A stretch of DNA of 64,000 nucleotides from Oculina patagonica (GCF_052425735.1 NC_135759.1:45942001-46006000); one strand, 5' to 3'. Shown: positions 2,591 through 56,569, counted from the first letter of the stretch. Notes: a model not told the origin generated them from the letters alone. Translations and numbers: made by a program.

Positions 2591-2680
2591 GTTCATCTAT
2601 AAATTTAAGGCCTAAGAAGCTAATGAGCTCATTAAAAAACGTACGCTCGCAAAGTACACAAATTAAAAGTTTATTAAGAA

Positions 2681-4006
2681 TATTCTATTCTTAGTCCATA
2701 TATTCCTGATAAATATACTACGCAAGATTCTTTTTCTTTTGTTCAGGAGTTTCAAAATATTAGATCATACGACAAGTTTCTTATTTCATTTGATGTACAA
2801 AGTTTATTTACTAATATCCCTCTTGAGGAGACTATAAATATTGCAGTCAATACTATCTTCAAACATAATCCTGATTTTCCCATTAGTAAGGTTAGTCTTA
2901 AAAAGTTGTTTTCATTTGCTACTTCTCATACCCATTTTTTATTCAATGGTTGTTTTTATGATCAAATTGATGGGGTGGCTATGGGCTCCCCTTTGGCTCC
3001 TATCTTAGCTAACTTGTTTATGGGTTTCCATGAGGAACAGTGGTTAAATAATTATAAAGACTCCCCTATCTTATTTTACCGTAGATATGTCGATGACACC
3101 TTTTGTGTATTTAACAATGAGCAAGATGCCATGTTATTTTTAGATTACCTTAATACCAGACATCCTAACATAAGATTTACATTTGAAAAGCAGTTAGAGG
3201 GTAAATTACCTTTCTTAGATATTTTAGTAGATAACTCTTCTCCTATTTGTACCATGTCTATATATCATAAGAAAACCTACACTGGTCTTCTTACTAATTA
3301 CTTTAGTTTTACTTCATTTAAGTATAAAATAGGTTTAATTCATACCTTAGTTGACAGAGCTTTTAAAATCAATAACTCTAATTCGGGTTTTCGCAAAGAT
3401 CTCGCTAAATTAACAGAAACTCTTAAACGTAACTCATTTCCCTCCCACATAATTGACAAAATCATTAAACGTTATCTAGATAATGTTAGACTTAATTCCT
3501 CTAGTGATGTTAGTATTAGTAATTCTAACAACAACAGCACTCGCTATTTTAAACTACCTTTCATCGGCAATGTATCTAATATAACCCAGATAAAAATTAA
3601 ACAGTTATCTAGGCGTTTTTGCAGCGACTTAAACATCAAGTTAGTTTTTTCCTCTTTTAAAATAAAGAATTTTTTCAGTTTTAAAGATCCCATTCCTGAT
3701 GCTATTAGATCCTCTGTTGTTTATCAATTTACTTGTGCGGGATGTAACTCCCGTTATATTGGCGAGACTTCCCGTCATTTTTCAACAAGGATCAAAGAGC
3801 ATACTTTAACTGACAAAAATTCACATGTTTTTAAACACCTTAACAGTTCATCTAATTGCAAAAATTTATACACATCTGATTGCTTTAAAATTTTGGATTC
3901 TGCTCAAACCGTTTATTTTCTTAAATTAAAAGAGGCCTTTTACATTAATAGTTTAAAACCAGATTTAAACACTCAAGTGCAGCATGTCAACACCTTTTTA
4001 TTTTAA
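2681..4006 (+). CDS. Penelope-like RT/GIY-YIG ORF, N-terminally truncated, otherwise uninterrupted
   Basis: ORF 2906-4006 extends in frame upstream to the element boundary (SILSPYIPDKYTTQDSFSFVQE...). Confidence 0.88.
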   Translation, partial: YSILSPYIPDKYTTQDSFSFVQEFQNIRSYDKFLISFDVQSLFTNIPLEETINIAVNTIFKHNPDFPISKVSLKKLFSFATSHTHFLFNGCFYDQIDGVAMGSPLAPILANLFMGFHEEQWLNNYKDSPILFYRRYVDDTFCVFNNEQDAMLFLDYLNTRHPNIRFTFEKQLEGKLPFLDILVDNSSPICTMSIYHKKTYTGLLTNYFSFTSFKYKIGLIHTLVDRAFKINNSNSGFRKDLAKLTETLKRNSFPSHIIDKIIKRYLDNVRLNSSSDVSISNSNNNSTRYFKLPFIGNVSNITQIKIKQLSRRFCSDLNIKLVFSSFKIKNFFSFKDPIPDAIRSSVVYQFTCAGCNSRYIGETSRHFSTRIKEHTLTDKNSHVFKHLNSSSNCKNLYTSDCFKILDSAQTVYFLKLKEAFYINSLKPDLNTQVQHVNTFLF

Positions 4007-8912: not shown

Positions 8913-11900
8913 ATGGCGAGTCGGCGAAATCAAGGCCCGAAGCACAAATTTCCGTCTAAAGCGAAAGAAATCGCGCTGAACATAAACATTTGGGAAGATC
9001 GCTTCCGAACAAGCACCGATCAAGGAAATCGCAGTCGCCTTGAAGATTTCCAAAATCATCTCCGAGCTCATAGTTTCCAAGTTGAGAAAGCACACGATTC
9101 TGTAGCGGTTTCTGGAAATGCTAGGAACATAAACATCAAGTTGAAGACCACAGATTACGGCAACTCGAGCTTAGGAAAATTTTTCGAGCGACTTCGGCGA
9201 CAGTGGTGTTCGTCCATTTGTCGGCGCGGTGATTCATTCTGGTTGGAATCTGCTGAAAGCCCCAAAAATACTTTCAAGTACAAATCGGACGGGACAAGAC
9301 AACGGCTGCAAGCTACTTCCTTCAGCTTTGGAAGTTTTTACGACCGGGGAACCTATATAAAGCATTGGTCTAGTGATGAAGATGCATCCCTCATTGAAAA
9401 TGGAAATATTCAAAGCGAGTTTACGCACGATACGAAAACTCTGGAGATCTACTTCAAGGCTGGCTTTCCCGAGGGATTCAAAGAGGTTCGCATTGAAATG
9501 GAATACAGACAGTTTGAGAATTATGTTGTAGTGGATGAAAACAATCTAGAGGATCAAGCTGGAGGAACAGTCCACTTTTATTTTCCACTCCAGTGGCCTC
9601 CAAAAGTATCTGAAGGTAACTCTATAATTTTACAAATTAACTCATATTAACTAAATTAAATAATATAAGGGTCCAACAGATTACGAAAAAGAGAAAAAAG
9701 GTTTAAAGCTGAGCTCCAAGACCCCCTACCCGATTTAGTTCAAATTTTGTATCGTTATGAAGTTCTAGTCACCAAGATTCAGTTAAAGCCGCGCTGATAG
9801 ATGTCCGAAGTCTTTTGCAGCATATTCTTTTATCTCATCTCTTTGCGAATGAAAATTCTGCATATTCTTTTATATCTTACTTTAAAGGAGGAGGAGTTAC
9901 CCTAGCAACCGTATAGCAAGAGGGTTATCCAAGCAATTACACGTTTCTTCCTTAGTTTATCGATGTATTTACAATATTTGTATCCTTGTAAGTACGGACC
10001 GGAGTTTTGTTTCAACGTTGGAGTTTAAGCAGTTGACCGAGAAACGTGAGCTAATGTGGCAAGAGAGATCACAAGGCCCTCTTTCCCAAACGTTAACGAC
10101 GACGAAGACGATGATGGTGATAGAATACGGGCTCCTACGGATAACTCGCCTCAGTCACCCCCGGGACAACTTTATTTTGGCTACAAGAAGCCAAACAAGA
10201 ACATGCAATATACCAAGCCGACAAAACAAAAAAAATACGCCCCAAAAGACATAATATTAACTAAGGTTTTGTTTTGTTTATTTCTTCTGAAAGAATGCTA
10301 CTTTTTTGACCCTAGAGCTGGGGTAGCCGTTACCCTGCCTCGTTTTAAACAAGGCCTTAGTCTAGACGTACAATGGTCGTTCTTGTTGTCCCAGTTGTCT
10401 GACAAAGAATCTTGCTTATGCTAACTTTTAGTAAAGTAAATTAATGTATTTGTTCTGTTTTGTTTAGGGGTGATGAACATCAACGACTACACCAACTATG
10501 ACCGTCTGACGCACTTTTTAGGGTGCAGTCGAGAGATCCTGGGATCCAGTTCAGTATTGTGTTTGAGATTTGAATTGAAACAGCAACCGGAAGAAGACGA
10601 GGTAGATTCACCGCTGGGATTAATGGCCGACCTTTCTCGAAGAGGTAATCTTTAGTTAATGGTAAACTAAATAAGGAACTGTACACGTCTTTGTTTAAAG
10701 TTAAGGGGAGCAGGGGTGGCGCGGTGGTAAGAGCGCTCGCCTCCCACCTATGTGGCCCGGGTTTTTTCCCCTCCGGTGTATATTGGGTTGTTTTTTTTTT
10801 TTGTTCTCTTCCTTTTTCCGGTTTTTTCTCCGGGTTCTCCGTTTTTTTTCCCCCCAAAAAAACAAACTCTCCTTTTTCTTTTTTTTCCCTTGCCCCCTCT
10901 TTTTTTAAGTCTATCGATACCCAAAAGACGGCTAGTTCGCACACAAACCAGTACTTATAGTCTATCTTCGTAGACTATTACGACATTTCAGTTACCCAAT
11001 TCCGGAATATCTTCTAAAGCGTCTCACGTTTCGTTAGCCGCTGCTGCTTCTTTTTCTTTCCTTCCTTTNNNNNNNNNNNNNNNNNNNNNNNNNNNNNNNN
11101 NNNNNNNNNNNNNNNNNNNNNNNNNNNNNNNNNNNNNNNNNNNNNNNNNNNNNNNNNNNNNNNNNNNNNNNNNNNNNNNNNNNNNNNNNNNNNNNNNNNN
11201 NNNNNNNNNNNNNNNNNNNNNNNNNNNNNNNNNNNNNNNNNNNNNNNNNNNNNNNNNNNNNNNNNNNNNNNNNNNNNNNNNNNNNNNNNAAATTGTCTTT
11301 AAATTATGTTATCTATGCCTCGTTCAGCTTTGGTGTTAGGACTCCGAGAGTTGGTACTTCCCGGTCTCTTTTTACTTTAGTACCGTTAGTTCCCAGAGTA
11401 TAAAGAAAGTTTTTGCAAAGTTTTTGGGTCGACGCTCGGTAGTTATCGTTTATCTTGAAAACCCTTCCTAATGGACAATATATTGGTCCATATTTGCCAA
11501 TTTGCCCATTATATAGCCAAAATTCCTATGCAGCATGTTAGCGAGCTGAATTGTAATCTAATTTACCTGCTATTTATCTTTGTTAGGCTTTCCTGTCTAC
11601 TTTGCGGCGATGAGGACGAAATCCCCCCGAGGGCCCACAGAAGCTCCAAGGAAACCTGAGCTATCTGACCACAAGATCACGTACGCTTTGGAATGTTTGC
11701 TGTCTCGAGGATACAAAATAAGTGATCGTATTTCCAGAAGGTTTTACGACCTATTACGAAGGGCCACGGACAGGTACGAGTCGCTTCTGGAGAATAAACT
11801 GGTGTCCCCCGAAAAGGTCAGCAAAGCTTTGTACCGACTGGTGACTCTTGTGGAGAATGATCGTTTCTGTCCACTCGAGTACTATCTGGAAAGTCTACTG

Positions 11901-14900
11901 TATGGAGATATGAAGCATTTGACAGCATTTGAATTCGAATTGCCAAAGCACTATGTTTACATACCTCGTCTCATCATAACCCCAACCCAGGATTACCTTC
12001 TGCCCGCGGAATTAGTGGCAGAGAATCGTGTAATCAGAGATTACGGCCACAAGCAGGCGATGCGGATTGCATTCAGAGATGAAGACTTCTCCAAACTGGC
12101 ATCAACGCACCCAGAAGGCCTTAAGCACGTATTGAATGAGCGCGTGATTAACAAGCTTTCAAACAACATAGAGATCGCTGGGCGCAGCTTTGAGTTTCTG
12201 GCGTGTTCCAATAGTCAGCTGCGTGACCATGGCGCATGGCTGTACGCGACAGACGGCGAGCACCGAGTCGCTGACATAAGAGGATCGCTGGGGCAGTTAA
12301 ATGAGATCAGATGTGTAGCAACCTATGTTTCACGAATGGGGCAGTGTTTCTCATCGACAAAGGAAGCGGTCACAGTCAGTATTGAAGTTGGATGCAAAGT
12401 GGAAGAAATTCCAGATGTGGAGGTACAATACGACAACGTATATTTCGAGTGTTGTAAGAACCATAGATCCGGGACATACACCTTTACAGATGGAGTTGGA
12501 AAAATCAGCTCGGCTTTGGCCAGGAAAGTATGTTTATTTATTGTTTTTTACAATTCTTTATACACGGTAATAAAACATCAGGATTCTTATTATTAAAAAT
12601 GCAAATCTAATTACTTATCTAAATACCATGATTGCCTTCCTGAGATTACAGGATAGGCTGTTCCAGAGAGTTGAATCACTTAAGCTGAAACCTATTTTTC
12701 AAATAGTTCGTTCGTGGAAGAGGTGCAACTAGTTTTTTCACGGAGTCTCTCGAAGATTAGGGTGTTCCATTACTTACACCCGCTTTCAGTGTTACGTGCA
12801 TATCTATCTTTCTATATCCATTTTTCGATATCTTTTTTCGTCTTTTTTTTCGGCGTGTTTTTTTAAATTAGCCAATAAAAATCTATATATTCTTTTTTTT
12901 TTTTATAAAAATGTGAGAAAAGGTCAAAAATTTTTTTTTTGGGGTTTTTTGTTTTTTTTTTTTTTTTTTTTTTAAAAACAAAAAAATATATGGAAAGAAA
13001 AAGACAAAAAGGGCGTAAAAGAAATTTAGAAGATAAGTATTCAGGAACAAGACCATTCAAAGATTTATATGCCATTAAGGCTTCCTGAATTTGAGGCAGG
13101 GTACGCAAATCTTTCCAGCCAAGTTTTCGTTATAGGCACTTGGCATCCGCATCATAGGCCGAGGAAATAAGCACGCGAGTGGCACGGCAATAATAATTAA
13201 AATTATACAATAAGCTAATAGTACAATCAAGGAAAGATTTTACTCTGTGTGTATTTTTTTTATCTACTGTTTCACCTTACAAACGTACTAATAGACCTTA
13301 TTCGTATTCTCGGTATAATACGAAGGTATTGGAGTGGAACTTGCAATGGAGGCTCATGCGGGTAATCTTTTTAAATGCAAATGACATAAAGCTGTTTTAA
13401 TGATATTCCCCCGCATGAGCCTCCATTACAAGCTACTTCCAAGCCAATACCGAGAATACGAATATGGTCTATTAACGATAGCCGTCTTTTCAATTTTTTC
13501 AGGTTGCAGACAGCCTCGACCTGGATCCAACTCCGTCAGCCTATCAGATTCGTTTCGGTGGTTGCAAGGGGATGTTAGCAATTGATCCCAGACTTCCACA
13601 AGGAGAGGACCGAGAAATACTGCAATACCGCAAGAGTATGAAAAAATTCGCTTCACCACATTCTGCCCTTGAGATCTGCGAGGCCTCAAAACCAAGTAAG
13701 TAGCGGTTAAACCGTATTTATATTACAGCTTGATTTTTTTTTAATCATCCATAATGAATGCTTCATTGTATTGCAATGGATAAAAAATTGACCATGCAAA
13801 GCGTTCTTTTATTTGATGTGCAGTCATTTTATAAAAGGCTATGTAAACACTGTTACGACGTTTTGTTAGCTTCATTTCTAAACGGAGTTATGCAATAACT
13901 GAGAGAGTTTCCCCGCGCTCATTGGTCTATAGTCATTGGTCATTGAAAGTATAAACCATGAAAATTGCGTAACTTGTAACGCAAAGTAGAGCAGATTTCG
14001 GAAAACTAAAGACATTTTCGCAACTTTACCAAAAAACAGAATCCGGCGAGTTGCGAAGAGTCAGCTAGAACACTCAGGACGAAATTTTCCACACAATCAC
14101 CGACTTCAAGTGGAAAAAAAAGATCTTGCGAGCTGTCACACGCGCGCGATTTCACACTGATTTTTAAATTTATTCGCCGGTAGATTTTTTCATTGTCTAC
14201 ACTCTTACAAACTATAGAAATGACGCCATAAAATGTCCAAAACTTTGCAGTGAAACCACTCGCCTAACGGTTCGTGGTTCCACTTGAGTTTTGAACATTT
14301 TATGGCGTCATTTTTATGATCTATAAGAGTGTAGGTCGATTTGTTAAATGGAATAACGTTTTCCTTTTGCACCAAGGTATGCAGGACAAAACATGTGTAC
14401 ATTAGGTTTTTTTTGGCGGAACAAATTTAAGAGATAGGTAAAGTTCGGATAAAATCGTAATTATCTCATAATTTCATTTTGTTTTTATTTCAGACCTTTT
14501 ATACCTTAATCGTCAGTGTATAATCCTGTTGAATGGACTCGGAGTTCCTGATGAGTCATTTATCAGCCTGCAAGACAACATGCTGCGTAGCCTCGCCTTG
14601 ATGCTGCTCTTTGAAACGGTAGCATTGGATACTCTTGGTCGCGCAAATATCCCAGGTGGCTTGAAAATCACAGCATTGTCACGCAGTGGTGTAAACTTTA
14701 CTCGAGAACCGTTTTTCCGCTCCCTGCTCCTGGCAATTTACAAGAGCCGATTGGGAGACCTACTGCGGAGAGCCCGGATTGCTATCCCAGAAACCCATGG
14801 GCGCCTTTTGATGGGCGTCATAGACGAAACAGGTTCTTTGGAGTATGGCCAGGTTTTTGTTCGTTACTCCAAATCGGTCCGTGAACCAGGAAAAGAGCTA

Positions 14901-17900
14901 ATCACGCTGAAAGGCAAAGTGGTAATCAGCAAAAATCCCTGTTTTCACCCAGGTTAGTTTTTCAGACCCATAGCACAAATGTTTAATGAACATCTAATAA
15001 ACCAGTGTAATTGCTCTGAACCGTATCGCTTTAAATGAATATGGTATGATATGACATATCATGACCGTTAGCAGTGGTGAAAAGTAGGGTTTTGTAACAG
15101 TTGTAATTATGCAAAAGCTCAAGGAACTGACAAAGTGTTGAGCGAGACTTTGTCAGAATTTCATGCGTAATTCGTTTTGTGGCAAGCGAAAAATGATTTT
15201 ACATTAGCTAATCAGTAGCTTCGTTTGCAAGTTTGGATGGAAAATAATCAAAATAAACATCAATGTCTCTTTTTTGGAAGGCCCATGTCAGCCACATTTT
15301 AATGGTATAGTCCAATCCTTAGATTTTTTTCCTTTGTGGCATTATCAGTTACTATGTACTGATCTGTATCATTACACTGCTTCTTTCTTTAGGTGACATG
15401 CGCATATTTCAAGCCGTTGATGTTCGAGTTCTGCACCACTTGGTTGACTGCATTGTGTTTCCCGCCAAAGGACCCAGGCCTCACACTGATGAAATGTCTG
15501 GCTCAGACCTAGATGGCGACAAGTATTTCGTCACGTGGTATGACAAGCTCCTTCCACCAAGGGATGAGAATGTAGACCCGATGGATTTCACATCTCCAGA
15601 CAAAATAGTTTTGCCTAGACCTGTAGAAGTCTCTGACATGATTCAGTTCGTGTCGGATTACATCAAAAATGATCAACTTGGGATCATTGCAAATGCTCAT
15701 CTCGTGCATGCTGACCACGACGAAAAAGGTATGTCAACGCAATAACAATTTGTTATCTCTGGGAGAATAGGGCCATAAGCATAGTGTATGTACTCAATTT
15801 GATCCTTCTAAAAAATTCATTTTCTTTGGGTATGACGTCAAATGGCGTCAACAATAACTGGGTTTCAGTACATGTTCTTGGCGTCAAACACGACATGAAT
15901 CGATGATATATTCTAAAACAATAGCTTGATGGCAAGGTCAAGAATCTGGGACGAATCAGCCACTGAAAGTTTTAGCATCAAAAAATGAAACTTGTTAGTT
16001 TTCAAAATTGTAAAACCCTCATGGGGACTGGGATCCAACCCCTCCCCCTCCTTCCTTGCCACCCATGTACGTGTTGGGGGTTAACATAAATATTTTCTCT
16101 TTTGCTCTCGAGGCATATTTTCCGATGAGTGTATCGAGTTAGCCCACATGCACTCAGAAGCTGTAGATTTTCCAAAGACTGGGAAGTGTCCATCTCTTCC
16201 CAAAGAACTGAGACCTGATCAGTACCCAGACTTCATGATGAAACCCGGGAAACCTCGGTACAAGTAAGTAAAAGCTCACTAATATTGTTCATTTGCTTAT
16301 CTTAGTAATATTGTACTAATATTACACTTACTAATATTTTACACTTACTTATCTTGCTACTTTATTTCATATGCATGCAGACACAGATCTTTTTACCGGC
16401 CTTCAGAACTGTCACATAGGAGAATTTTTGTGTAATTGCGAGAAATTATTTTCACAGCCCTCTACGACCTCTTCCACATGTATCAATAGTTTTTTGTGTA
16501 AATGCCTGCTATAATGTATTTATTTAATTTTCATGGCAAAGAGAGAACACCAAAAAAAAATTAGGCTTTTAAACTTGGGACAAACTTTTGTAAAGACAGT
16601 CAAATCTCGTTATAGCGGACACGCTCGGGGCGTCGTTTAGTGTCCTTTATAGCGAGAGATCCTAATAGCGGGAGTCATTTCCAGTCAAACCTCTCTTGCT
16701 GGGGATCTGGATTTTGTCCGTAATAGCGAGTGTCCGCAATAGCGGGGTGTCCGCAAGGCGAGGGTTGACTGTACAGCAATTTTCCGACGTCTCGAACCTC
16801 CAAAGGGAACGAAAATTGGTTCTGGAAAGTTCGGCAAAATGGAGCAATAAGGGAAACGCGTTTTGGCTCGAGTTATTGGGAGGTTTGAGGAATTGGTATT
16901 CCACTGTAAAAGTATATCATTTTCATTTCCGTTATCTTATCACACGTTGCTAAATTTATATTTTAGTTCCCAAAGGATACTGGGAAAACTATTCCGAAAG
17001 TGCAAGTCGCTTGACCGTGCCCAGCAGTTCTCTGTTGATGCTTCTCAGACCCAGATCACCCCTGATGACGACATGATCGTATCGGGCTACGAGCAATATC
17101 TTGAAGAAGCTAAAGCAGTGAGAAACCGCTATAACACCAAACTGGAGGGACTCATGTCCTTATATGGATTACGAAATGAAGGAGAAGTCATCACTGGTTG
17201 TCTTGTGAGGGTAAACAATCGCCTTTCTGGCAAAACCGATGAGAAGTTCGAAGTGGCGCAAATGATACAAGCAAGTCTTTCCACTTTGCGCGCAAAAACG
17301 CGACACGATTTTTATGAAGAGTTTGGTGGCGAAGACGAGGTGATGGAAGAGTTTGAAGACAACGGCAGTTTTAGCGATGAAGTCCTGATGAAAGCTTCTG
17401 CTTGGTACATGGCAACGTACGGAAAAAGCGACGAAGAAGAGAATGCGACCGAGGTCCAAGTAAGAGCATCTTCGAGTGACTTGCAAGGAAATCAGCAAAG
17501 AAGTGAGGCGGGGGGTCAGGCGAGGCTGCTCAGTTTTCCGTGGGTTGTCGATCGAATCCTGGCAAAGATCAAGGACGCAAAGCAGAAAGAAAGGAAAGAG
17601 AAAGGAATCCAGAAACGCCATGCTCTGAATGCAGTTGGTGACCTCATAACAGTTCAAGCAGCCTACTTCTTTGAAAAGTTCCAATCAGATCTAACTGACG
17701 ATCGCGAGATGCGAATGGAAGAACGTGGTAAGCTACTGAGAATGTTACACCGCCTCCTTGGGGTAAGCCACGTTCCACGCCTGTCTTTATGTGATGCGTC
17801 GCTGACGGGAATCTCCGTGGGTGATGAAGAAAGACGCCATATTGAGATTTATGCACATTACAAGTGGAACGCTTCTGATCAAGAGCAGTATGAGTACCTA

Positions 17901-20900
17901 CGTTGGCTCGGAAAAGCACTGACTCAAGATGGTAAAGTTGAAATTCAAAGATACCCAGCTGCTTTGTATTTTCAACGTTCTCAAGGTAGGGAATAAGCCA
18001 GTAAAATATGCTTTGGTCTGACGTAGTTTAAATTGTATTTTACAATGGTATACTGTATTCTATTTTGCTCAAGGTTGCTTTTGTTCTAATCTTTTACCGG
18101 ATTTGACGTCTTCTGTGGCTTCGTACAGAATGAGTGGAGTATTTAGCTTACGCAGCCCAATGTGAACACCTTAAATTAAAGTTACATTCAAAGCACTAAA
18201 ATTAAAATGTTTAAATTACAATAAAAACTTACGAAATCAGTTGCATTTGCTGTTTTCTGCTGTGTTCCCCGTCGTAACATAGCAAAAAATATTCCTTTGC
18301 CCGCCGGTTTTACGTTTACTGAGCAAACAACCATGACAACAGGCGTATGTTACCTTTTTGTGGTACAGTGTTTGGAATCTTATTAACGGAATGGTAAAAG
18401 TTTGTTAAGATTAATTACAAGGCTGCTATGATAACAAATACGTTTAAATGTATGGTGCAAGAAGAAACATTCGTTTTTTGTCATCCAGGGTTAGTGAGAC
18501 AGCAATACTACATCACAGCGGATTCCAACAGACTGCTGAAGAGTGCGTATGTCGGTGTTCATGTTCAGCGGTGTCCTCGCCTCCTTCATCTTCTATTGAT
18601 TGTGATGCACTGGGGCCGGCGGCGGCGTCTTAATGGAAACTCAAGACACACCTTCCTTTCCGATGAAAATTTAGCCACACTGTTTGTCGCATTTTGTGAG
18701 AAATCTGGATTCATTCACGAGGTAAGTCGTTCTCAGAAGTCGAGATTTTGTAGATGTGGGATAATGATTCAGTGAATTAAACAAATTGGCCACGTTTTTC
18801 CATGGTTCACATTCTTTTAGACCATAGAAATGACGTTATAAAAGTTTCAACGCTCAAGAGGGAACATGGGCGTAGCAAGTAGCTTTATGTCTAAGTTCTG
18901 AACATTTCATGGCGTCGTTTCTATGAGCTATGGTCATGGAGACTTTGGCAATATGTCGTTGATTTCTTTTACGATAACATCAAAATATGCCGGCCAACTA
19001 AGGGTAAATCAGTACGTAAATCATTTCCTCTCCCAATTTAAAATAAACAAAACTTCATTTTATTTTTACAAGTCAATTTTCTGCTGTCGTTAGTTAAATA
19101 AAAACAAATTTCTTACAACACTGCATAATGAATTAATTTGTGGGAGTTCGGTGGTCTAGCCGTTTGCGGGTCTGAGTTCTTGAGATGTGGTGATCGATGC
19201 TTGGTCTCCATAAAAATTTTGTGGTGCGTCGTTACATTGTCCAATTGTTTTGGGCAACTTAAAAAATGCAAAAACCTGCAGCGGGCTAGATTCCTATCCA
19301 GTTAAAGTTGCCTTACGCTACATTTTCCGGAGTTAAGCGCAGTCACCTTGTGCCACTTAGTGCAACTGAAGGCTAAACCTTGCTGCTCTCATTTCTCTCA
19401 ATGCTATCTTTCAGGTTGGCAGCGACGAGCTGCAGAACTTTAGTTCCAGTCTCCTTGGATTACCATCCAGTGCTACACAGTCTGAGGCCGAGGAGCTGTG
19501 GAGCCGTGAAGTCCTGGGTGAGGCTTCTCAAGGAAGACTGAAAGGCTTCAAAGACGATACCACTCCTGGTCATGTACTGATCAAGTTCTTTGAGCACTAC
19601 AGCACACCAGCCGACAATGACCCCCTTCATATACGAGTCATGAAGAATCCAGTGAAAAGCAGTGAAACACTTTATCCAAACGTCTCTGTAGAAGAAAGTG
19701 GTCGCTTCTCTGACGCGGCGCTTCACGCATTTCACGAGCTTGCGCAGTGCTGTGGCCTGGACAGCCTCACTGCGTCACTGAACACAGAGAGCACGCGTGA
19801 GCTGCAAGAAACGCTGAACATGCCAAACACGACTTGGGGCGCACTTCGGTTTGCTGAGGAGTTTGTTCGAGTCAAGTTATCAACACTGACGACAGCACAG
19901 ATCACTTTACGGCCATGTAAGTCTTTTTGTAATAGGCCGCCTTCTGTGATTAAGGTACTTAAGCGGATAAAGAAAGGTTTGCATGCAATATCGCGCAAAA
20001 TTTATAAAAATAACAAGAATCAGTTTGTTGATTTTTTTTAAAAGTAGACGAGTAACTAGGGCAAGACATTTGGTAAAAATTGAAAAGCGATCTATGGTTA
20101 AAAATTTGTTTAAAACAAGCTTTTGACTACCAGTCTGTAGTCTTTATTTTTTGTAGTCTTTATTACTCGTTAAGGACTACAGACTGATAGTCGAAAGCTT
20201 GTTTCAAAAAAATTGGTAACCAGAGATCGCTTTTCAATTTTTTACCAATTGTTGATTTGCGTTTGCATATTCCCCTTGCGTTATTTTCGTTTTCTTGAGA
20301 TAATTTTCCTTATGCATAGCAAACGTTATAATCGCTGTTTGTATTTCAGTCTAACATGCATCACGACCATATTTATGTTTCCCTCGCTAAAAGAAGTCAT
20401 TTATATCGGCATCACGATTGCTGGAATCAGAACCACAAGTATTTGGTAATTATCTTTAGAAAGCTTACATAGCATATAAAGAACGATTTAATGCCAGTTA
20501 GTGTCCTCCAGGTTTTCACATACAAAAAAATACAACCTTGAAAAAAAATGAACGTCCTTTATTCATAAGTATAATATTTACACCTAGAGCTATGATGATT
20601 GTCTTAAAGCTATATTTATAGTTTTCTCTTTCGATATTTTTAGCTCAGAAGTCCGCCGGCTATATTCTTGAGGCAACAGGGAACTACCTCACACTGCACA
20701 GCGTTCAGAACGAACTGGAGAAGATAGAAGAAACCTGTACATCATACATCTACGACCATACTGTTAGTGGTGCTACTCGCTTCTTGTTCCTGGGTCAAAA
20801 CGGACCAGAAGATGCAGTTACTTTCAAACAGTTGAGAAAAGGCGACTTTGCCGTCAACCTCAATCAAATAAATGGACTTCTGTTGAGCCTTAATCTTAAC

Positions 20901-21803
20901 GATGCACCTGCTAGAGATTTCGCAGAAACAAAGTTCCGCAGCATGCTTTCATCCCAGCTGGAGGTATTCAAACGGGAATATCTGCCTTATGTGCATGGGA
21001 CAGACAGACTCAAAATCAAGGCGGAATTTGGAAGCATTTATGTTGAGAACGTACAGAGTCTGATGTCACGTGTTGAAATCATTGAGAACATCTTGAGTCT
21101 GCACGCGGATCCTAAAAACCAGCCAGGTAACAAGAAAAACCAACATTTGATGAAGCACAAGTTTATACCAATTTCACGTGGAGCTGATGGTTGGACTGCA
21201 GCGTTTGAATCAAGTCGCCAGGAGTCCGCCGAAGAAACGTACACTGTGGTGATGAAAGAAGGCAGAAATCACACTATAACCGTCATTTACGACAGGGATT
21301 TGCAGTTCAGTGATGTAGAAATTCCACCCATCAACTGGGTTGTAGTCGACGTCAAAGCTCCACGCCCTGCCAGGGCGAAATCACGTGACGTCGATTTCCG
21401 CGTCACCGTGTGTTCCGAGCGGAGGCTGGAGGGAGAAGAGAAAGATGAAGTTATGAAGTCGCCAAATTATGAAATCTTTAAGACGAAGTCCATCATCAGC
21501 AAGTCTCCCAATGGAGGTCCAGGACTGGAACTTGCAAACGAGTTCCTTAAGAAGGTGGCTTTCGTCCGCCATGATAAAACGACGATGTACCATATCTACA
21601 ATGGACGTTTGTGGCTCCAAGTGAAAGAGGTCCAAAAGTATGAAGTAAGAGGTACAAGGTTCCTTAACTCTCCCAGCAAGAACTTCACTGAATTGCAGAT
21701 ATGGGGATGGTTCAACGGCAAAGATGACGAGGAGGTGGCGATGAATGTTGCCAAAGACTTGTGGTCAGCGACTAAAAGGCTGCGACCACATATTAACGGC
21801 TAA
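8913..21803 (+). CDS. Eukaryotic (RNAi-type) RNA-dependent RNA polymerase with long C-terminal extension, 11 exons, ~1957 aa
   Basis: Exons 8913-9615, 10468-10644, 11587-12527, 13503-13695, 14494-14952, 15393-15728, 16113-16263, 16967-17985, 18489-18721, 19415-19916, 20644-21803; all GT-AG and phase-compatible (sum 5874 nt). Motifs: FLACSNSQLRD, SRMGQCFS, FTDGVGKIS, PSAYQIRFGGCKGML, LNRQ, KNPCFHPGD, catalytic SGSDLDGDKY (15506-15520), AVDFPKTG, YPDFM. Confidence 0.92.
10706..10930 (+). mobile_element. tRNA-derived SINE; 3' part corrupted by low-quality homopolymer sequence
   Basis: Head GGGAGCAGGGGTGGCGCGGTGGTAAGAGCGCTCGCCTCCCACC matches the cleaner copy at 45631-45894. Confidence 0.75.
11069..11289. 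other. Assembly gap (N-run) in RdRP intron 2
   Basis: Run of n. Confidence 1.
12600..13190 (-). mobile_element. Decayed 3' fragment of a CR1/L2-group LINE ORF2, interrupted by low-complexity sequence
   Basis: Minus-strand translations RATRVLISSAYDADA..LGWKDL..MAYKSLNGLVPEYLSSKF and LRDSVKKLVAPLPRTNYLKNRFS..LWN resemble CR1/L2 ORF2 C-termini. Confidence 0.7.
13289..13474. mobile_element. Foldback MITE (TAATAGACC...GGTCTATTA)
   Basis: ~28-bp TIR plus inner inverted arms (gcaatggaggctcatgcggg / cccgcatgagcctccattac). Confidence 0.8.
14205..14330. mobile_element. Palindromic MITE; related copy at ~18818-18940
   Basis: atagaaatgacgccataaaatgtccaaaact / agttttgaacattttatggcgtcatttttatg arms; similar arms recur at ~18820. 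Confidence 0.65.
16597..16908. mobile_element. Two adjacent Tc1/mariner-type MITEs (CAG...CTG ends, TA flanks)
   Basis: cagtcaaatctcgttatagcggac ... gtccgcaaggcgagggttgactgta, then tacagc ... ccactgta. Confidence 0.6.
20070..20248. mobile_element. Foldback palindromic MITE
   Basis: ~80-bp inverted arms (aaaattgaaaagcgatc...ccagtctgtagtc / gactacagactga...gatcgcttttcaattttt). Confidence 0.75.
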
Positions 21804-53500: not shown

Positions 53501-56500
53501 ATGGAAGAGATTAAATTATGGTAGAAGGCTCATCATTCCCTTGCTATTGAATTACGTACATGTATAAATTTTGTTTATTATGATTTCAGGTTAACTTTCA
53601 ATTAACAGCATAACTTTTCTGCACTGGTACTGTGTATTTACTACTTACCTTAACACCTCTGGCAGTTTGCTTTGATATGCTCGCAAAGTCAGAAATAACA
53701 AATGCCACAAGATAGGTGCTCATGTCAACACTCCGTTGAAAGTGGTCAGTGCACAGCTCTGAAGCATCACCACACTGAAATAAAACAAAACAAACATGAG
53801 AAACAAACACTAACACTTGATGTAAATGCAATAATAACAACAATAACATTATATAAATGAAAAGAGTGCATGTACACAGTACATGTAGGCAGAAAAAAAA
53901 ACTTAAACTTCATGCAAGTGAAAAACTCTTACCCCATCAGTGCGGTTCAGTGGCATGTTGGCTAATGCTACATGATGTTTCTTTCGAACAATGACAATGG
54001 AAAACATTGCTTTCATGTTAGGTTCATCAAAACAAGGAAAGGCATTTCTGGCATCCGTCGGTTCAAAATGGGTTGTTGCAAGATATCTAAGAAAGCAAAC
54101 AACAGGACACGGAATTACAAAGTATGCAAAAATAATGTTGTTCCAAAAGAAATTAACTAATTAAATTACTGATTACTTAGAAATATGGCATAAAGTCTAC
54201 AACAAAAATTGATCCTGCTGTTTCCGGTACCCCAATAGTTGTGGGCGGTCTGGACTTCAAATGTTTCATGCCTTTACTTTTGGTTCCTGTCCCTTCTTTC
54301 ACATGTACAGTATGGTTTCTAACCCTTGGAGCTTCTTTGTAAAATATTGGGGAAAGTACATTTCTCCCAGTTTCTCCTAGTACCCATCACCAGCTGGTGC
54401 CATAGTCTTTTTTGGAAATACTGAATGTCTCATAAGATATTAAAATGTAGAACTTTCATACTAGTCCGTTGCCAATTGTTACACAACTGAAGATGTACAG
54501 GGTATAAACATTGTAAAAGAACTGTGCCTTTGAAGTAAAGGGCTTACATGTAAGTGGGTATACATGTACTGGAAACAAAATAAACACATGTATATTGAAG
54601 TATGCCGTATGTGATCTAATGAACGCCCACTCTCAATTTAACGCCTTGTATCTAATAAATGCCCCCCCTGAGGTGTAAAGTTTGTATTAGATGCTCCCCT
54701 CTTATAAATGCCCAGTGTCTAATAGATACTCCCCCCCCCACCCCCCTATCAAGAATAGCCTCTAGACGTATTTGCCAGCCACATTTTTTTCATTTTTGTT
54801 TTTCTTGTCAAACTCCTTTAAATTTAAAAGGCCGCTTTTATACGGCCGCCTTGCTACACTCTTTTTACTGTTATATCCGCTGGTGAGCGGAGTTGCAAAA
54901 AATGTTTACAGCTGTTGGACCAATTAACCAACCCAACCAACCATGTGAGTGCGACTGGGCTAGACACTTTACTTCCTGAATTAAAAATTCAGTTGTAAAA
55001 AGGGTGTCTAATTTCAAATGTTTAGTTCCTTTTCACCAAAATACAAAATCAAGCAAATTAATCATATTTGCATAGGGGCGGGAGATGTTAAAATAATTTG
55101 CATAAATTAGAAACATACTAGCTCTTGGCAGTCAAGGTTGATCCTTGTCAGTAACTTGGCTTTAATAAAATTATTATATATCGCAATGTTTTGAATGACA
55201 ATATTACGCACATCGCTTCTTTTTGGTAAAACACAAATTAACTATTGAAAAACCCGGATTTATCCGGAAACATTTTATTCGAAATTAAAAAAAATGCTGT
55301 AATTTTGTCAATTTTTCGTGTGATCTCTTGATGATCGGGATAAAATTAAATTTAGCAATTGCTTCCTTCGTGCTGTCGACGTTAAGTTCCTTGTTTGTAC
55401 ATTTGATCTCTCCAATAAAAATGGCAAATAAAGGTGATTTGTCAAGAAAAACCCAATGCATTAGATGACAAAAATACTCTAAGGAATCCACACCTTTCCT
55501 CGAAAATATAAGCTTTAAGGGTTAATTTACACAGAGATTTTGTAATGGCGAGCTAGCTATCACTGAAAAGGCAAATTAATTGAACAAGAAGAAACAAGAA
55601 AGGCCTCCCCGTTTCTGTGCAAACATCAATTGCAAAGGCTTTATTTTCCGTACTGCAAAATCTACGGTATACAAAAGCACTCACTACAAATAAATTCCTT
55701 TTAAATAAAGAATTTTCCACCGTGCACTTATCGTGTGTCTAAACAAAGACTACGCTATCATACAGCAGATGAGAACACCGGTAGTCAACAAAAAAGCCCT
55801 AGCGAAAATAAAGTATAAGAATGAGCGAAAAACCTTACCTTGTTTCACCTGATGGTGATTTATATGTGCTCAAATAGAATCCAGAAAGTCCTCTACTTAA
55901 CACGGAGTTGAACTCGATCACAAGAAAGTAGTATTTTCCACTTTGAAGTTCACTGCCGAGCGAGATGGAAATCATTTCTCCTGGTAGTCGAGAGATCCCC
56001 GTCACTTCCAATGGAACTATACTGTCTATGTCACTTCTATCTTCAATTTCTCCTACTGCTACGTTGAAATAATTGATTTTCTTTCCAACATGGAGTGTAA
56101 TATTATTGGCGGCTTCATTGCAGTAGAGGAGAGCGTCAACCTTCCCCGAGAAATTAAACGTTGTCAGATTAGGATGTAAATATACAAGATATTCGATCGG
56201 TGATATGTGTCTCGGTAGCCTTAATGAGTGAGATTCCTTATGATTCGCTTCTTTTTTGGCTACAGAAACATCTCTAGCCTGTTGAAAATCATGACGAGAA
56301 TTCTTCTTGCTGTTACTGTTTACAGTTTCATAAGATGAAGATGGCCGAGCGAAGACGACGAGAAGCAACACAGACAGCAACAGCAGAGCCGTTACGACCC
56401 CATAAATGGCCGTCTTCCCGCCGAACATTTCCCTCAGTTTAAGCACAAAGTTCGGGCCGCGGAATCTTTTCGTTCGATGGTGTTTCTTGTCGGGAAGAAG

Positions 56501-56569
56501 TGAAATATTGATGTGGTCTTCAAATTCCACGCTTGAGGAGTCAGATTCTTCCCGATGATCTGATTCCAT
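38596..56569 (-). CDS. M1 zinc aminopeptidase paralog 2, type II membrane protein, ~18 exon positions with a duplicated catalytic exon
   Basis: Exon 1 56569-55839 (acidic cytosolic tail, [31 protein letters not shown]). Then [28 protein letters not shown]+HELAH exon in two copies, [21 protein letters not shown]; last exon 38802-38596. Confidence 0.92.
45082..45236 (-). CDS. Alternative catalytic exon B of aminopeptidase 2 (DFPTGAMEN...HELAHQ), 155 nt
   Basis: Intact CAG acceptor and GT donor; phase 1 to phase 0. Confidence 0.85.
45631..45894 (-). mobile_element. tRNA-derived SINE with V-SINE-like central domain, well preserved
   Basis: A box TGGCGCAGTGG, B box GGTTCGATTTC, core TTTCTCCGGGTTCTCCGGTTTTCCTCC, AT-rich tail. 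Confidence 0.85.
46818..47932. repeat. Identical 142-bp direct repeat (46818-46959 = 47791-47932)
   Basis: Directly visible; each copy starts with CAAGCCCTG. Confidence 0.85.
48681..48835 (-). CDS. Alternative catalytic exon A of aminopeptidase 2 (DFAAGAMEN...HELAHQ), 155 nt
   Basis: Intact TAG acceptor and GT donor; phase 1 to phase 0. Confidence 0.85.
48945..52510. mobile_element. Non-autonomous Kolobok-like DNA transposon (~3.57 kb)
   Basis: TTAA on both sides (48941-44, 52511-14). TIR AGTGCTACTATGACCAAAATTTT vs AGTGGTACTATGATCAAAATTTT. Subterminal inverted motif TGACGTCATATGCGCATC at 49171 and 52277. No transposase ORF recognised. Confidence 0.75.
50555..51165 (-). mobile_element. Two decayed copies of a second tRNA-derived SINE family, nested in the Kolobok-like element
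   Basis: Shared aaaaggcaa(a/g)gtctgcatgcaag..gcccatca and cactgcacct..aatcaataca segments; CORE-like gttcttgggcaagac. Confidence 0.55.

Follow-up and report, generated by a model that had tools for sequence, protein, structure and literature searches.

The gene of interest here lies on the plus strand of a 64,000-nucleotide stretch of the Oculina patagonica genome (GCF_052425735.1 NC_135759.1:45942001-46006000; this whole stretch is 'the window' throughout), and encodes a cellular RNA-dependent RNA polymerase (RdRP) followed, on the same chain, by a degenerate terminal nucleotidyltransferase (TENT). That it is a cellular RdRP is clear from a PF05183 domain scoring over its cut-off together with a DLDGD motif, and its closest full-length protein is the Nematostella ortholog LOC5504594, 70% identical over the RdRP core. 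While plant RDR2 stops at the LSFPW motif, about 770 residues continue beyond LSFPW in the window protein. The features, as predicted, are as follows.

8913–21803, plus strand: cellular RdRP gene, 11 exons, 1957 residues, open frame, start codon inferred
8913–9615, 10468–10644, 11587–12527, 13503–13695, 14494–14952, 15393–15728, plus strand: exons 1–6
16113–16263, 16967–17985, 18489–18721, 19415–19916, 20644–21803, plus strand: exons 7–11
9306–9611, plus strand: metazoan RdRP PH-like domain at the protein's start (PF25359, E 4.9e-08)
11958–16261, plus strand: RdRP catalytic core, exons 3–7 (PF05183 above cut-off on exons 3–6; exon 7 scored separately)
15506–15520, plus strand: intact DLDGD motif, residues 863–867, from the sequence
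16967–17576, plus strand: RdRP helical head (family profile aligns to RDR2 850–1124), ending just past the LSFPW motif
17760–18526, with an intron at 17986–18488, plus strand: pseudo-nucleotidyltransferase N-lobe, residues 1252–1339, from profiles and an ortholog model
17793–17846, plus strand: degenerate GS (D1263-A1264) and DxD (H1278-x-E1280) positions, from alignment columns against intact relatives
18509–18511, plus strand: site of the third catalytic Asp, replaced here by Y1334, from alignment columns
18527–18721, plus strand: TENT central helical lobe, the DUF7752 region (DUF7752 E 5e-4, below cut-off; 56.7 bits to the intact profile)
19559–19762, plus strand: PAP-associated-like end of the helical lobe, aligned to the intact profile, nucleotide-recognition loop divergent
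19805–20729, with an intron at 19917–20643, plus strand: KH-like domain (nematode DUF7636), no GxxG loop
21000–21794, plus strand: C-terminal RESC1/Cet1-like triphosphate-tunnel barrel

All ten predicted introns are joined in contigs from close relatives, which come from two public runs that carry a flag of probable RNA; nine are GT..AG, and intron 1 is compatible with GT..AG given three bases that differ in the relative. The same contigs splice the pseudo-TENT exons at GT..AG (17983>18487 and 18719>19413, each cut +2), and because a single relative contig of 4017 nucleotides runs from the RdRP core (11585) to 19916, the pseudo-TENT region is in frame with the polymerase. The initial annotation, whose quoted peptides all occur on the plus strand across exons 16967–17985, 18489–18721 and 19415–19916, had placed the TENT 'within the RdRP'; that is right as far as the chain and frame go, but the domain lies C-terminal to the RdRP core and head and not inside the polymerase domain. 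Its interval of 17700–19760 also left out the KH-like domain and the barrel (19805–21794). At the other extremity, exon 1 (window 9100–9560) differs by about 4–5%, with small indels, from both relatives, far above the roughly 1% or less of exon 8, which suggests a fast-evolving N-terminus. There is no helicase-like open reading frame (ORF) upstream of the gene within the window, leaving the PH-like domain with no helicase ahead of it, and an N-terminal DExH helicase is likewise absent from the gene model and from Nematostella isoforms X1 and X2.

The TENT fold and its catalytic residues

The region behind the RdRP has, on the combined evidence of profiles and modelling, a TENT fold of the Cid1/GLD-2/TUT kind, with a Pol-beta nucleotidyltransferase (NTase) lobe and a central helical lobe, the fold part coming from the Nematostella ortholog. 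The family profile matches GLD-2 (3e-16) and Cid1 (3e-09) as well as TUT4, CutA, URT1, Tailor and TUT7; alignment-free ESM features of Nematostella residues 890–1215 fall in TENT clusters (best 0.96), all of the top ten matches belonging to one clan; and an AlphaFold model of the Nematostella ortholog tail (pLDDT, the predicted local distance difference test, 79) matches GLD-2, TUT1 and TUT7 at about 1e-06. For the window's own helical lobe, a profile of six intact, non-orthologous RdRP-TENT tails gives 56.7 bits, while none of 200 shuffled versions exceeds 2.3. The by-eye alignment on which the region was originally recognised holds up against intact relatives. The Pfam TENT models (PF22600, PF01909, PF03828) do not match the window's own exons, and the PAP_assoc model finds nothing in them either, though the region, with its divergent recognition loop, aligns with the intact RdRP-TENT profile.

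The chemistry, by contrast with that of intact relatives, has gone from every catalytic column: G has become D1263, S A1264, the first Asp H1278, the second E1280 and the third Y1334. The initial annotation had already remarked on the missing GS and DxD, and the third Asp can now be added to the losses; neither the hG[GS] motif nor the three acidic residues (DxD plus D) can be found in the window protein. Orthologs tell the same tale, in that DxD occurs in none of the six, the first and second Asp are absent from all six and the third from all four that cover it, while the GS position reads GS only in Nematostella, against D1263-A1264 in the window and GE, DS, GA and GA in the remaining orthologs. 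By its residues, then, the region is a genuine pseudo-TENT that stands outside the active TENT family, with which it shares the two-lobed Pol-beta and helical fold while lacking GS, DxD and the third Asp and having a divergent recognition loop.

Beyond the TENT, the family profile aligns to the KH domains of IGF2BP1 and hnRNP K (E 0.003–0.02) and the modelled order of strands and helices fits KH. The last domain has the barrel fold of triphosphate tunnels (Cet1/CYTH/RESC), and trypanosome RESC1/RESC2 and yeast Cet1 are the best fold match of the window-type barrel at 10–15% identity, triphosphate binding being predicted from the fold. As to the metal-binding glutamates of active triphosphatases, no conserved ExE stands ahead of the FG motif in the barrel alignment, a comparison of sequence rows and not a residue-level superposition. 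TENT, KH-like domain and barrel thus follow the RdRP head as in the helicase-RdRP-TENT-barrel proteins, and the degenerate profile matches the intact one at 99.95% over 375 columns.

Intact, degenerate and reduced relatives

Two further RdRPs of the same design, overlooked in the initial annotation, lie on contig C10 of the same genome, and both have GS, DxD and the third Asp. Each has an N-terminal DExH helicase, one also scoring a RIG-I C-terminal domain (CTD)-like domain, and in each the ORF that encodes the end of the RdRP also matches MTPAP-like_central at about 1e-08 (L004 and L006); judged from these residues, the fused TENT of both may be active. Paralog 1 (L003:1804-5872, L004:1755-6087; C10 ~3.712–3.724 Mb, plus strand) comprises RIG-I-CTD-like, DExH helicase, PH, RdRP, intact TENT, KH and barrel domains; its helicase has one stop and one frameshift in the assembly, the frameshift being absent from all four related runs, and a relative's 3538-nucleotide contig covers it, spliced, from the RdRP tail through both TENT exons. 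Paralog 2 (L005, L006, L010; C10 ~3.99–4.006 Mb, minus strand) is a helicase-RdRP-TENT with an intact triad and two frameshifts in the assembly; about 4 kb further downstream there is an incomplete second copy of its last exon (L005:4296-3139).

The best 150 of 443 HMMER hits include intact RdRP-TENT chains from Riccia and Cavostelium, both with a helicase, and from Marchantia paleacea, where the helicase is in a cluster-mate; throughout the intact relatives (the two paralogs, the liverworts and the amoeba), GS, DxD and the third Asp occupy the same positions as the window's degenerate residues. Degenerate N-lobes are found in the same set in Argopecten, Ostrea, Saccostrea and a record named Ostreobium. 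When 83 tails of 100 or more residues are compared, counting an N-lobe at 60 or more residues, 35 have one: six are full GS-D-D-D, four have GS-DxD but are truncated before the third Asp, and 25 miss at least one Asp. Five animal-clade-like RdRPs (P0056, P0057, P0070, P0033 and P0090) have GS and the second Asp without the first, and to judge from sequence they are an intermediate state of decay.

In the tails of Steinernema, Centruroides, Branchiostoma, Saccoglossus, Amphiura and their kin the N-lobe and the barrel are both missing, and where scanned such N-lobe-less tails carry DUF7752 and/or DUF7636, which Pfam lists as unknown. A profile of 24 of them matches intact tails at 97.9% (E 4e-13 over 223 columns; score 98.7 against a shuffled maximum of 14.5), the matched span beginning with the helix that follows the third Asp and ending with KH, and 11 nematode-like tails alone match at 94.8%. 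DUF7752 and DUF7636 of nematode RdRPs share with the window protein the site after the RdRP head and a profile match to TENT helical lobe and KH, unlike it in being entirely without N-lobe and barrel, a comparison that includes Steinernema and not C. elegans RRF-1, EGO-1 and RRF-3 themselves.

A quick tree of 44 chosen rows, supported by the Shimodaira–Hasegawa-like approximate likelihood ratio test (SH-aLRT) without bootstrap and resembled by a second tree, has a clade of 32 rows (SH-aLRT 98) with all ten named animal rows, the window, both coral paralogs and further rows. Inside it are the intact coral paralogs, a dead-TENT group (80) and an N-lobe-less group (99), the N-lobe being gone entirely in one clade of 15 rows, and outside it stand the intact liverwort and amoeba forms. 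An order of intact, then dead, then deleted is the simplest reading of these sequences, given weak inner nodes; on that order this gene is likely to represent an intermediate point in the breakdown of an ancient enzyme that both copied and tailed RNA, remnants of which likely survive in the RNA-silencing polymerases of worms.

What a dead tailing domain may do

Conservation is very uneven along this tail. Compared with Nematostella, the window protein is 27% identical over the N-lobe, 47% and 44% over the helical lobe, 53% over KH and 30% over the barrel. Two other orthologs repeat the contrast between N-lobe and helical lobe, and across the three orthologs covering both lobes identity is 23–29% for the N-lobe and 45–56% for the helical lobe. 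No folded part of the protein is less conserved than the dead catalytic lobe, and shared residues cluster in the helical lobe, where H1367, W1368, R1370, R1372 and R1379 are common to all three covering orthologs. It is this combination of conserved helical-lobe residues and a weak N-lobe that leads us to favour a scaffold or RNA-contact arm over a conserved 3′-end pocket. A TENT fused behind a cellular RdRP has lost GS and all three Asp and, in our view, probably persists as a structural and RNA-contact arm, and not as an enzyme.

The initial annotation had pictured a pseudo-enzyme that binds 3′ ends or tails of RNA; on this view the dead inter-lobe cleft would read them specifically, recognising U, A or UG, and would choose templates for the RdRP. 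Both lobes are indeed full length in six orthologs and in bivalve relatives, S1265, R1236, R1240 and the basic HWGRxR helix are shared, and in C. elegans and S. pombe templates marked by TENTs are described as feeding RdRPs (10.1101/2024.05.27.596008). We nonetheless think such a reader unlikely, since the low N-lobe identity and the absence of the whole N-lobe from nematode, chelicerate and deuterostome relatives argue against a conserved nucleotide or 3′-end pocket; moreover, the residues in place of Asp vary between orthologs (H/E, P/K, Q/E, P/Q), and the recognition loop is not conserved between window and Nematostella. Less probable again is an N-lobe that is a neutral remnant being lost, with the helical lobe retained purely as a spacer: the poor conservation of the N-lobe and its outright deletion in the 15-row clade would suit this idea, but its length, frame and predicted fold (pLDDT 83–93 across most of the lobe in the Nematostella model) are kept in cnidarians and bivalves, and surface basic residues of the helical lobe are common to orthologs. 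That some catalysis survives in a remodelled active site, for example one of H1278/E1280 with D1263, is very improbable, for although E1280 is acidic and common to two coral-type orthologs and certain NTase-fold enzymes work with fewer acidic residues (PMC11646218), the positions read P/K/H in Nematostella and P/Q in two other orthologs, with no common acidic set.

Several points count against the arm that we prefer. The N-lobe alone is weak, if colinear (profile-profile score 28.7 over 118 columns against a maximum of 21.1 in 50 shuffles), and the fold was predicted for the Nematostella ortholog and not for the window's spliced protein, from an alignment that contained intact rows, so the model is not independent of the intact relatives. 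None of the seven PDB matches of the N-lobe-less profile is a TENT, which makes the link from nematode tails to TENT a transitive one, and the nodes joining the window's group to bilaterian groups are weak (80–82). Both intact paralogs are broken in the assembly, and their nucleotide-recognition loops look, by eye, unlike the Cid1-type motif used for comparison. The aligned KH rows have no GxxG, the RNA-binding loop motif of KH domains, and with a barrel only 30% identical to that of Nematostella, RNA binding by either domain may have been lost. Finally, Nematostella, which has four RdRPs, is reported to have no secondary small interfering RNAs (PMC12768352).

As for mechanism, we infer an ancestral (helicase)-RdRP-TENT-KH-barrel chain that would have tailed its own templates or products, and an early animal duplication after which the window's copy lost helicase and tailing chemistry. 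In the arm that we favour, the helical lobe, whose basic HWGRxR helix is conserved, would keep KH and barrel close to the RdRP exit, where the barrel might grip the 5′-triphosphate of de novo RdRP products, as RESC2 does on guide RNAs; RESC2 binds 5′-triphosphate without metal-binding glutamates (PMC10201420). If tailing is needed, the intact paralogs or free TENTs would supply it in trans, and the RdRPs of nematodes, chelicerates and deuterostomes would have been reduced further, to helical lobe and KH only. A bolder version, possible if rather doubtful, is that a major animal RdRP lineage derives from a single-chain sense-copy-tail-hold enzyme, with the coral fused TENT marking templates in cis and the window's paralog as its dead-TENT partner. 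Nematode DUF7752 and DUF7636 would then be TENT helical lobe and KH, so that RDE-3 and CDE-1 would replace the lost in-cis activity in trans, possibly docking on the relic lobe.

Known systems offer instructive parallels. In complexes of the RDRC (RNA-directed RNA polymerase complex) type, of which Tetrahymena Rdr1-Rdn1/2 is another, the TENT is a separate, active protein, whereas here it is fused and dead. Utp22 and the TUT4 Lin28-interacting module are inactive, and their chains, with those of NF45/NF90, are among the fold matches of an intact relative; compared with these pseudo-NTases, the loss here would be independent, and the domain is embedded in an RdRP with intact paralogs in the same genome. 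NF45/NF90 have an NTase fold without catalytic Asp and a binding or scaffolding role (PMC11646218), and separate TENTs and RdRPs act together in small-RNA amplification in S. pombe Rdp1-Hrr1-Cid12 and in C. elegans RDE-3 poly(UG) tailing (10.1101/2024.05.27.596008). Helicase-RdRP proteins have been published for Dictyostelium (RrpA-C), oomycetes (RDR) and Hydra and Nematostella (RDR) (PMC4791657), and a PAP nucleotidyltransferase domain was noted in two amoebozoan RdRPs (10.1101/2023.10.19.562841, Extended Data Fig. 10 legend). The C10 paralogs share the RIG-I-CTD-like/DExH-RdRP front end of the former; the window gene differs from both sets in having no helicase and a dead TENT. In the accessible text of these two sources there is no mention of animal RdRPs with a TENT, of a pseudo-TENT, or of the KH and the barrel, and a literature search covering text outside figures, bioRxiv supplements and subscription papers found no animal pseudo-TENT, TENT of the coral paralogs, assignment of DUF7752/DUF7636 or animal decay series.

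The pseudo-TENT is a new variant of a little-described RdRP-TENT fusion, and its value lies in the natural pairing of putatively active and dead paralogs within one genome and in the link to nematode tails, through which two domains that Pfam lists as unknown gain a structural identity. Many animals have RdRPs without an assigned role, and the tailing module, whether intact, dead or reduced, points with the KH-like domain and the triphosphate-type barrel to concrete candidate activities for them; the recurrent partnerships of TENTs with RdRPs (Cid12, RDE-3) may also be linked to an old gene fusion.

Other RdRP genes and neighbours

The genome holds further RdRPs of other kinds, among them a tandem cluster of at least eight divergent genes with a single-exon core (C3 4.617–4.735 Mb) and an RdRP of another type with UPF1/AAA_12-like helicase exons behind it (L007; C7 ~15.95–15.96 Mb, minus strand), which resembles a Branchiostoma RdRP-AAA_12 protein (PMC6396948). 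Within the window, two tandem M1 aminopeptidase genes lie on the minus strand (34624–35283 and 55838–56569, their Peptidase_M1_N first exons). On the plus strand at 2678–4006, a reverse transcriptase is followed by a GIY-YIG domain, in a fragment of a Penelope-like element.

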